This document shows positions 24,001-27,000 of a stretch of DNA of 64,000 nucleotides, one piece after another. The stretch is from Candidatus Hydrogenedentota bacterium (GTDB lineage: Bacteria > Hydrogenedentota > Hydrogenedentia > Hydrogenedentales > JAEUWI01): the NCBI GenBank assembly GCA_034669905.1, contig JAXMOL010000002.1, positions 189,248-253,247 on the forward strand, in the 5' to 3' direction. How positions within the stretch are numbered: the stretch's first letter is position 1; each line of letters starts with the position of its first letter. Position numbers: made by a program.

Positions 24001-27000
24001 TTTGCCGCCGACCAGTCGGTGGACCCGGCCCATCACGTCGCCAGCATTTCCCGTCACAAAGGCTCGGGCCGCGATCTCATCCTCTATCTGGCCAACGAAA
24101 AGCCCGAGGCCATCGCTCCCGAATAAGGCAACGGGGACTGCCCAGTCACGGCGTGCCAGCGCCAGGCTGGACCGCCCGGGGGAAAAACCGCATAGGCCCG
24201 CCGTCAACGCCCGATCCGAGGGAATACGTTCATGGGCGGTCCCGTTGACCTTGTGCTCCCCCCCAAAAAAAGGAATCGGGCGGCGAGGCTGGTTGCCTCG
24301 CCGCCCGTATTCGGACCCATAATGCGCCGTAGTTAGTCGTTAGTGATTATTCACCAATCGGGTTGCTGGTCGCGTCGGCATCGGCGCCGTCCGCGTAGCG
24401 AATCACCCCGCTGGAGTCGGTGAAGAAGCCTTTACCACCGGTCGTGCCATAAGCCGCAGCGTTGGCGTTGGCCGTGAAGGCGTTGGCGTCACCGCCGAGT
24501 ACGAAGTTGTAGCCACTCTTCGTGCCACCCCAGTTACCATCGAGGAAGGAGGGGGTTGCGCCGGTCAGGTCCGCGAAGTCGGCGGTGTAGGCGTAGTTGG
24601 CGGCGTGGTAGGCCACTTCGGCACCCACGATAGTGCGCAGGTTACCAATGGCACTGGACTCATTGGACTGCATCCGCGAACGGAGCAGGTTGGGAATGGC
24701 GATAGCCGCAATGATAGCGATAATGGCCACAACAATCATCAATTCAATCAACGTGAAACCTTTGTTAGCTTTTTTCATGGCGAATCCTCCTGTGGATTGG
24801 TTTGGTTTAATCTTTCAAATGAAGGCCGCGCGGCCCGCATCGTACTTCGTTTCAACTGTTGCCAACTATAAGGCAAGGGCCGTGCCAAACAGGCATACCA
24901 CTTTCTTAACCATCTTCATGGCAATAACTTACGATGCAAACCAGGCACCTTATGACGGCCGAACCTGGCGGAATGCGCCCTCGCTCATCGCCCTGTTGGG
25001 ACCCCACGTGACAATATTTGTCACTTCCCCCCTCGCACGGCAGGGATAGTTGACCTTCTCTCCAGAAATTGGGAGAATGTGGCGACCTGTTGACGCGCGA
25101 CGTCGGCTCAAAAAGGAATTCTCCCCCATGGCATCCATTATCGGCCTCCTCGTCATTGTGTTGCTGTCGGTCATCGTGAACCGAATCGCCACCGTGGCCC
25201 TCACGCTGACCGGGCTTTCCCGCGAAATGGCCCGTTTCCAGGCCCGCTCGGCCTTCAGCACGACCGGCTTTACGTCAAACGAGACCGAAGCCATTGTGAA
25301 CCACCCCGTTCGTCGCCGCATTGTGTTCACCCTGATGATGATTGGCAACGTGGGCCTCATCGGCGTCATTGCCACGACCGTATCCTCCGTCACCTCCGTC
25401 GAGACCGGGGATAACTACAGCCTGTGGGTCCGGATTGCCTACCTGGTCACCGGGTTAAGCATCCTGCTGGCCTTCTCCATGAGCAAGTGGGTTGATGACC
25501 AGCTCTTTAAATTCATTGGATGGGCATTGCGACGGTGGACCCTGGACGACATCCACGACTACCGTCACCTCCTAGCACTGGGCGAAGGCTACAGTGTGAC
25601 CGAACTCAAGATGGACCCGGGCAACTGGCCGGTTGGTAAGCGCCTCGACGAATTACGCCTTTCCCACGTGGGTGTCATCGTGTTGGCCATTCATCGGGCC
25701 GATGGCGATCTGGTAGGTTCGCCGATAGGCGCCACCTATATCCGCGCGGGCGACCGCCTGACCGTATACGGCTTTAAGAAGGATGTGGCGCGGTTTAACC
25801 ATAGCCGCGACGCGGAAGACGGGCCCAGGGCCTATCAGGAGTTGGTGGATGCACGGGCCCCCGAAGTGGCCGCCGCCCAGGCCCGTCGTATGGAAGAGGA
25901 ACGGCGCCGCCTCAAGCGGAGAACAGCCCGGAAGGCCTCAGATTCTTCTGGGGACTAGCTGGCTTCCCGCTTGGACGTGCCGAGCTCGACGACGTTTTCA
26001 GAATCGATGCCGTGCGCTTCCAACTTCTTCGCGAGATTGGAATAGGCTTCCTCGTGCTGTTCCAGAGTCGCCTCGTGACGGCGCGCCGCCAGCACCATCA
26101 GGATAATGACGATGGTCACGATCGCAAGCCCCTGAAAGAGCGCCAACTGGCTGTCGACCAAACTGGAGGTATTGCGCAGCAGGATGCCGCTGATGCCCAG
26201 GGTAATCGAGATCAGGTAGATAAAGAAGACCGCCTGACGCTGGGTAAATCCAAACCAAACCAGACGATGGGAAAGGTGATCCGGTGCGCAGTGATCGATG
26301 ATGTCGCGCAAGGTCCGGGTTTCGCCCTTGAGAATGCGCGCCATGATGACATAGCCAAAATCAAAGAGCGGCACCCCCAGAATCAGAATGGGTATGGTGC
26401 AGGAAATGATACGGTTTTCGGTCCATTCTCCCATCACGCCCAGGGCCGCCAGGGTAAAGCCCAGGAAGAAACTCCCCGAGTCGCCCATAAAGATGAGGGC
26501 CGGCTTGCTGTTGTAAATCAGGAAGCCCAGGTTGGCCCCAATCAACCCAATCGCCAACATGCCAAACCACGAAAGGCTCGTCTCAGTGTTGGTAAGGGCG
26601 TAGGCCTGCAAGGCGATGACCAGAAACATGCCGGCCACAATAACCGACAACCCCGAGGCCAACCCGTCCATATTGTCCGTGCCATTGAAAGCACTCGTGA
26701 CCCCCACAATCCAGAGTATGGTCACAGACACATCAAGCACTTCATTCTGAAACACATTGATACGCACGCCATACTGGGAGAGTATCAGGGTCGCGGCCAC
26801 CAGGGTGATGAGCTTGTAGAACCCGGCAATCCCGCCCACGTAGTCGTCTACCGCCCCTACCACGAGGCACATGAAGGCCCCGAGCAGAATCCCGTTCATA
26901 CCGTCACTGCGGTAATCGGGCAACAACACGGCCACCGCAAAGGCAATGAAAATCACAATGCCACCACCGCGCGGGACGGGCTGTTTGTGGATCTTGTTGT

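Follow-up and report, generated by a model that had tools for sequence, protein, structure and literature searches.

Dispersed type IV pilin genes with sigma-54 promoter motifs evolve in concert, probably by gene conversion, in Hydrogenedentota

INTRODUCTION

Why does a bacterium carry four nearly identical pilin genes at unlinked places in its genome, and what keeps them alike? The question is raised by a locus within a 64,000-nt stretch of DNA (hereafter, the window) from a Candidatus Hydrogenedentota bacterium, which an initial annotation described as one of four dispersed major pilin genes kept alike by gene conversion. Concerted evolution is known for the trwL genes of Bartonella, and a role of RecA in the concerted evolution of tuf genes is established. 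Wang and Chen (2018, PMC6053082) treat tuf, psbA/psbD, amoCAB/hao, and the flagellin genes of Alteromonadales as dispersed prokaryotic duplicates in concerted evolution; pilin is missing from their 26 genes, and the word occurs 0 times in the main text. Nor did we find a report of concerted evolution of type IV major pilins among titles and abstract beginnings in the open-access literature.

RESULTS

Four near-identical pilin genes in one genome

The genome under study (G000; 7.44 Mb in 102 contigs, 96% complete) does encode the 143–amino acid (aa) pilin four times at unlinked places. In tblastn, full-length intact copies were found on contigs C2 (the window), C16, C55, and C6, with 97 to 100% aa identity to the window query; among the copies, protein identity is 96 to 100%. 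Three further full-length paralogues, on C71, C3, and C37, are distant (47 to 67% aa identity to the query in tblastn). The coding sequences (CDSs) are 86.8 to 97.9% identical (C2/C16, 97.9%; to C55, 92.5 to 93.3%; to C6, 86.8 to 87.7%); the differences are nearly all synonymous, with 0 to 6 residues changed. High identity from the promoter onward, as annotated, holds for C2, C16, and C55, whose leaders are 89 to 100% identical, but not for C6, whose leader identity is ~70%.

Codon usage, scored against a reference set of 32 ribosomal and chaperone genes, places the four copies at the 98.1 to 99.7th percentile of 4969 crudely called genes; the distant paralogues are at percentiles 93 (C71), 85 (C37), and 2 (C3). 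In a self-BLAST of the genome (at least 300 bp and 85% identity; 79 matches), pilin was the sole clear protein-coding family with at least three copies on different contigs, as judged by eye with the other families unannotated. The window copy and its local elements are the following:

24265..24307, minus strand: GC hairpin followed by a T run, intrinsic-terminator-like (sequence reading and downstream comparison)
24347..24778, minus strand: type IV (T4a-like) prepilin, 143 aa, the site A copy on C2 (N_methyl and TIGR02532 above cut-off)
24407..24512, minus strand: patch with all 9 differences from the C16 copy, all synonymous, in codons 89 to 124
24513..24889, minus strand: 377 bp without a difference from the C16 copy, covering promoter, leader, and codons 1 to 88
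24786..24791, minus strand: Shine-Dalgarno sequence AGGAGG, identical in all four copies (sequence reading)
24872..24888, minus strand: sigma-54 −24/−12 promoter TTGGCAC-N5-TTGC (promoter scan and copy alignment)
25009..25023, no strand: palindromic box TGACA-N5-TGTCA, a putative enhancer located 135 bp upstream of the promoter (motif scan)
25050..25958, plus strand: divergent gene of a TrkA_C membrane protein, which marks site A

A sigma-54 promoter and an upstream box precede each copy

As annotated, an exact promoter motif, TTGGCAC-N5-TTGC, lies 106 to 110 bp ahead of the start of all four copies. The palindromic box reported ~135 bp farther upstream is likewise present at all four (133 to 135 bp beyond the promoter), but its spacer is N7 rather than a single nucleotide. 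TGAC-N7-GTCA is exact at C2, C55, and C6, and the C16 version begins with TTAC. In the window, the box falls beyond the interval 24347..24913 to which the initial annotation had assigned the unit.

That annotation also counted 23 genes with the promoter, five of them with the box and four of these pilins. The five boxed promoters stand, with the box at 111 to 135 bp; the exact promoter sites number 21, and all five boxed ones precede pilin genes, namely, the four copies and C71. A sixth exact site has only a weak box match, at 195 bp. In 7.44 Mb, there are 139 exact boxes, and versions with other spacers number 39 to 164, so there is no genome-wide enrichment. At that density, an exact box is expected in ~0.1 of the 21 upstream 250-bp regions; it was observed in 4. 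With up to one mismatch, the box was found upstream of 49 of the 56 fetched pilin loci that have enough upstream DNA; it is conserved at pilin genes across the order and precedes most of the additional loci, too.

The box may be an enhancer bound by PilR. The Pseudomonas aeruginosa PilR consensus is TGT-N11-ACA (PMC8035640); the Hydrogenedentota pilin box does not read as this motif. A relaxed scan for promoter plus box adds one PEP-CTERM–type gene (G000:C15:61840-62930, minus strand), which has the pilin box, a near-consensus sigma-54 promoter, and high-expression codon usage. A role of the box as a PEP-CTERM enhancer was rejected, since neither PrsR nor PrsK was detected above cut-off in G000 and the box occurs at only 1 of 32 motif matches (~27 of them true PEP-CTERM–like genes).

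Protein, pilus machinery, and regulator genes

The window prepilin has the short leader of a class III signal peptide (7 residues, then G|FTLIE, with Glu at +5) and a hydrophobic helix; it contains no cysteine. The predicted model (pLDDT 89, from a 43-sequence alignment) combines a helix of 52 residues with a sheet of four strands, the arrangement that defines type IVa pilins, in which a long N-terminal helix packs against an antiparallel beta-meander. Its best Foldseek match was Thermus PilA4 (6xxd; E 1e-5, TM 0.60), followed by PAK pilin. The protein does not reach the GspG cut-off; G000 has a separate T2SS cluster, which includes a GspG of its own. We infer, with good support, that the four copies encode the major pilin of a filament.

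G000 has matches for PilB, PilT, PilC, PilM, a secretin, and PilD: PilT and PilM are above cut-off, the best PilB and PilC matches are below their equivalog cut-offs, and PilD was assigned only by a motif; pilM and a secretin are located on C19. On C3, pilB and pilT are followed by a PilS-like sensor, in which Pfam 6TM_PilS scores above cut-off, and by an adjacent NtrC-type sigma-54 activator, which no model named PilR, giving a pilB-pilT-pilS-pilR–like cluster with the sensor-activator pair of a PilSR regulon. In 40 of 41 genomes, the PilS-like sensor gave exactly one match. G000 has ~25 other strong matches to sigma-54 activators; a single-motif search of the crude gene set did not detect RpoN. 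A RecA motif is present.

Directly upstream of the C3 cluster lies a gene for an 876-aa fusion of a c-di-GMP–binding MshEN domain with a DnaA-like AAA domain (G000:C3:128218-130848). Many G000 contigs also carry prepilin-like genes with a common N terminus (~45 genes, 300 to 390 aa), which we take to be DUF1559-like.

The copies occupy old syntenic sites

The genus was represented by nine genomes, and each of the eight other than G000 has two to four copies, some of them partial. Upstream flanks define four sites: A (7 genomes), B (5), C (6), and D (8). The chromosomal sites are thus indeed common to relatives, with homologous flanks in 5 to 8 genomes per site, and the paralogue sites are syntenic across species, as in the genes compiled by Wang and Chen. 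Between lineages, the A to D flanks have about 67 to 75% DNA identity. Terminators and enhancer spacers sort by site, not by genome. C71 represents a fifth, single-copy site, E, present in all nine genomes. Site A, recognized by the TrkA_C gene and/or an adjoining second pilin, recurs in several families of the order; the TrkA_C gene adjoins a pilin also in two other families (G037 and G072).

Site B is empty in G001 (C122) and in the single-contig genome G008, where the flanks adjoin without pilin or box, and the third G003 copy (C23) retains the D downstream flank only. Site loss and rearrangement therefore occur. Three loci stood out individually. G004:C353 has the upstream genes of site D and an enhancer region that by eye resembles site B; G007:C192 combines a B flank upstream with a C flank downstream, through misassembly or inter-copy recombination; and G006:C70 has Lys at mature position 2 (FKLIE) of an otherwise invariant motif, an error or a damaged copy.

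Copies group by lineage

A PilS tree splits the genus into five lineages. All 28 cross-lineage quartets grouped the copies by genome (21 to 66 sites versus 0 to 9 by site), as did 39 of 39 once G003:C23, left out of the quartets, approximately unbiased (AU) test, and synonymous control, was added as a D copy. G007:C192 and C397 (site ambiguous) and the partial G007:C207 and G005:C471 were kept out of quartets and AU test. With 24 copies, the AU test rejected the by-site tree (p 2e-91) and the strict by-genome tree (p 2e-42) and accepted the by-lineage tree (p 0.43). The annotated grouping by genome is therefore correct between deeper lineages but not as strict monophyly. In the close clade G001/G002/G006/G008, 16 of 21 quartets grouped by site, mostly through site C, and the A-D pair grouped by genome in 5 of 6.

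In G000 and its sister G007, the laggard is site D: the C6 copy and the G007 copy at this site form a group (100/100), and G000:C6 and G007:C569 are identical in protein at a dS of 0.37. There is one lagging site per well-sampled lineage; site C keeps its own residues in four species.

When only synonymous codons were counted, sites in the major copies were 608 by genome, 74 by site, and 83 otherwise. Control quartets with the unconverted paralogue E gave 227, 386, and 204, respectively. Codon preference does not explain the by-genome signal, since 227 in this control is close to the 204 of the remaining pattern. Among paralogous pairs, dS is 0.01 for G004 A/D, 0.08 for G008 A/D, and 0.09 for G000 A/B; within genomes, dS reaches 1.05, near between-lineage values. 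Between lineages, pilin dS is 0.7 to 1.6, and that of paralogue E is 1.1 to saturated. Throughout, dN is far below dS, and within-genome pN is at most 0.036. All three G003 copies have in common a one-codon insertion and many replacements. A spread of selected amino acid changes only was ruled out, since by-genome sites are mostly synonymous and lie along the whole gene.

A probable recent conversion tract in the window and assembly checks

The 377-bp stretch of C2/C16 identity is, as judged from sequence, the likely most recent conversion tract. The run test for this pair gave an uncorrected p of 0.001, the lowest of 36 pairs; clustered differences at p < 0.01 were found in 2 of 36, one being a G007 pair with a possibly chimeric contig. 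The window's sigma-54 promoter is the upstream limit of similarity to C16 and C55. On the other side, the hairpin is found at site A only and is conserved there across the genus, which places it outside the converted unit.

Most of the compared genomes are fragmented metagenome-assembled genomes (MAGs). Single-contig genomes still show near-identical pairs (G008 A/D, 98.1%; G025, 99.1%). Of 22 public contig runs, 4 were compared with the window, and gaps in their coverage carry no weight. Contigs of public assemblies branch at 24888-24889, i.e., at the window's −24 box. In public run X1, which may be the window's own source sample, loose contig ends match the C55, C16, and C6 upstream flanks and the C16 downstream flank. 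X3, from another study, has C55- and C6-like flanks and both letter variants at 24440-24452, and X5 contains a 496-bp C16-type piece.

Replicates beyond the genus

We examined 33 genomes with at least two fetched homologues, picked for several matches and hence not a random sample; 20 of them, in six families, have a pair with at least 95% protein identity. Two families in which both sites are syntenic replicate the grouping by genome. In f8, the G021/G030 quartet gave 17:0:1 for amino acids and 38:15:11 for DNA, with within-genome copies only 79 to 83% identical in protein; the G030/G036 quartet, one of whose sites is unverified, was mixed (DNA 18:22:10). In f5, DNA counts were 49:0:0 (G035/G090) and 70:1:4 (G090/G093). 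By-site grouping was also rejected across families, in a test with nine sequences (p 3e-6). By-genome quartets overall involve G000 to G004, G006, G008, G021, G030, G035, G090, and G093, more than the five species asked for by Wang and Chen, with kin among them not independent. Extra copies are unnecessary order-wide, since each of 10 of 10 f13 genomes has a single match (E ≤ 1e-45). With the window query, 60 of 107 genomes had no match at E ≤ 1e-45; an f5 query matched 33 of 43 f5 genomes.

DISCUSSION

The rejection of the by-site tree, the lack of the signal in unconverted paralogue E, and the f5 and f8 replicates bear out the annotated concerted evolution of the pilin copies. We consider it quite probable that highly expressed major pilin genes under PilSR control evolve here in the manner of tuf, by slow gene conversion. 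The genus ancestor would have had a major pilin gene at about four dispersed, stand-alone sites, each unit consisting of enhancer box, sigma-54 promoter, RBS, CDS, and terminator. The most likely process is homologous recombination of a non-reciprocal kind, presumably of RecA type, that occasionally takes place between the dispersed copies; it would copy the CDS between sites, sometimes with leader and promoter, so changes would reach all sites of a lineage while the flanks stay site-specific. The enhancer region would be maintained by selection and not by copying. Conversion would be slow and uneven, with one site lagging per well-sampled lineage and occasional loss of sites. A single PilS/PilR pair probably controls transcription of every copy, and the products would then enter a common pilin pool.

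Could purifying selection and codon bias from high expression alone keep old paralogues similar, with no exchange of DNA? The low dN relative to dS, a pilin dS between lineages below that of paralogue E, and the codon usage fit this idea. It does not account for paralogous sites being far closer than orthologous ones (the pairs with dS of 0.01 to 0.09), the insertion common to the G003 copies, the flat codon-preference control, or 377 identical base pairs that include a noncoding leader; we regard it as largely refuted and very improbable. Artifacts of short-read assembly, in which collapsed or mixed copies create identity within a genome, deserve an equally low rating. Several copies do lie at contig ends, G007:C192 joins flanks of two sites, and X1 has one contig over codons 55 to 135. 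Against this, single-contig genomes share the pattern, copies in mid-contig retain 9 to 57 differences, X3 and X5 contain the expected variants and flanks, and amino acid signatures are common to four separately assembled species.

Recent independent duplications in each lineage, with birth and death only, would agree with the empty site B in G001 and G008 and with near-identical pairs in G020, G022, G025, G038, G072, and G083; these pairs may be young duplications, since no second genome shares both sites. This history is very unlikely: it needs repeated insertion between the same neighbors in five lineages, with terminators and enhancer regions kept by site; synteny of both sites in two genomes together with by-genome grouping was found in f1, f5, and f8. 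We give similarly little credence to a system that generates or switches pilin variants, whether through cassettes like those of Neisseria or through a heteropolymer in which a second, distinct subunit takes part. The lagging copy does keep its own residues between species (G000:C6/G007:C569; site C), but the lagging site is not the same in different lineages, and within-genome pN is low. As annotated, this is not a silent-cassette system: in a genome 96% complete, all close homologues are full-length, the four copies have promoter and RBS, and no truncated or promoterless cassette is among the tblastn matches. Antigenic variation is thus not indicated, given the lack of silent cassettes; neither a G4 motif nor a hypervariable surface region of the Neisseria type was found at the four copies.

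Slow gene conversion as in tuf thus remains our preferred reading. The mechanism itself is textbook material, known for duplicated EF-Tu genes and applied here to a pilus gene. As to why the copies are retained, we lean slightly toward pilin dosage and subunit compatibility in one filament, by analogy with other complexes, for which Wang and Chen argue from dosage and paralogue interference (PMC6053082). PilS feeds back on pilin level (PMC6058289), and PilS sensing of pilin may buffer dosage or copy number. A broader scheme, which we put forward as speculative and rather doubtful, is an order-wide multi-locus pilin bank under one PilSR circuit, in which selection for co-assembly would fix conversions and one locus per lineage would escape as a stable second subunit. 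If true, the bank would span a natural range of states, from redundant copies at one end to heteropolymeric pili at the other.

Several known systems resemble the present one in part. The genes of Wang and Chen likewise have syntenic paralogues that are closer within species, encode abundant complex subunits, and come with a dosage/interference rationale; pilin differs in having up to four copies, slow and uneven homogenization, and a lagging site. It agrees with these genes in synteny and in the number of species, whereas closeness within species holds only for splits older than the youngest ones. In Neisseria gonorrhoeae, too, dispersed pilin sequences undergo gene conversion, in pilE/pilS antigenic variation, where silent copies feed one expressed locus and diversity is created (PMC3547852). 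The Hydrogenedentota copies, in contrast, are all complete and have their own promoter and RBS, and exchange among them makes them less diverse. Two pilE loci are present in gonococcal strain MS11.

Streptococcus sanguinis also has more than one major pilin gene, PilE1 and PilE2 having a near-identical N-terminal part and both occurring in pili, but these lie inside one pil cluster and have variable C termini (PMC4832360); the Hydrogenedentota genes are unlinked, stand-alone, and alike over their full length. Xylella fastidiosa PilA1-3 are several pilA paralogues in a PilSR-bearing T4aP system, with different, partly opposing knockout phenotypes (neofunctionalization), and "gene conversion" does not appear in the main text on them (PMC9956873). 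P. aeruginosa PilSR has the same six-transmembrane sensor, NtrC-type regulator, and sigma-54 promoter with an upstream element, driving one pilA (PMC6058289); in G000, the same arrangement of promoter and box is found ahead of five pilin genes and the one PEP-CTERM–type gene.

The type IV major pilin thereby joins the few prokaryotic protein-coding genes for which recurrent concerted evolution is backed by synteny, as a case of pilin gene conversion acting toward uniformity and not antigenic variation. Fresh tracts, lagging and lost sites, and an unconverted paralogue form a graded data set on dosage versus paralogue interference, and the box offers a candidate enhancer at which a PilR-type regulator of Hydrogenedentota may act.

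Two other gene families were noted. The tuf gene is not single-copy in G000: it has a second fragment cut by a contig end (G000:C50:53960-54214 versus C8:170460-171713; 98.4% identical over 256 bp). Three tandem flagellin genes in the window (31839-34790, plus strand) are only 70 to 74% identical in DNA and so, unlike the dispersed pilins, are not currently homogenized; two more flagellin-like genes are located on C15 and C39.
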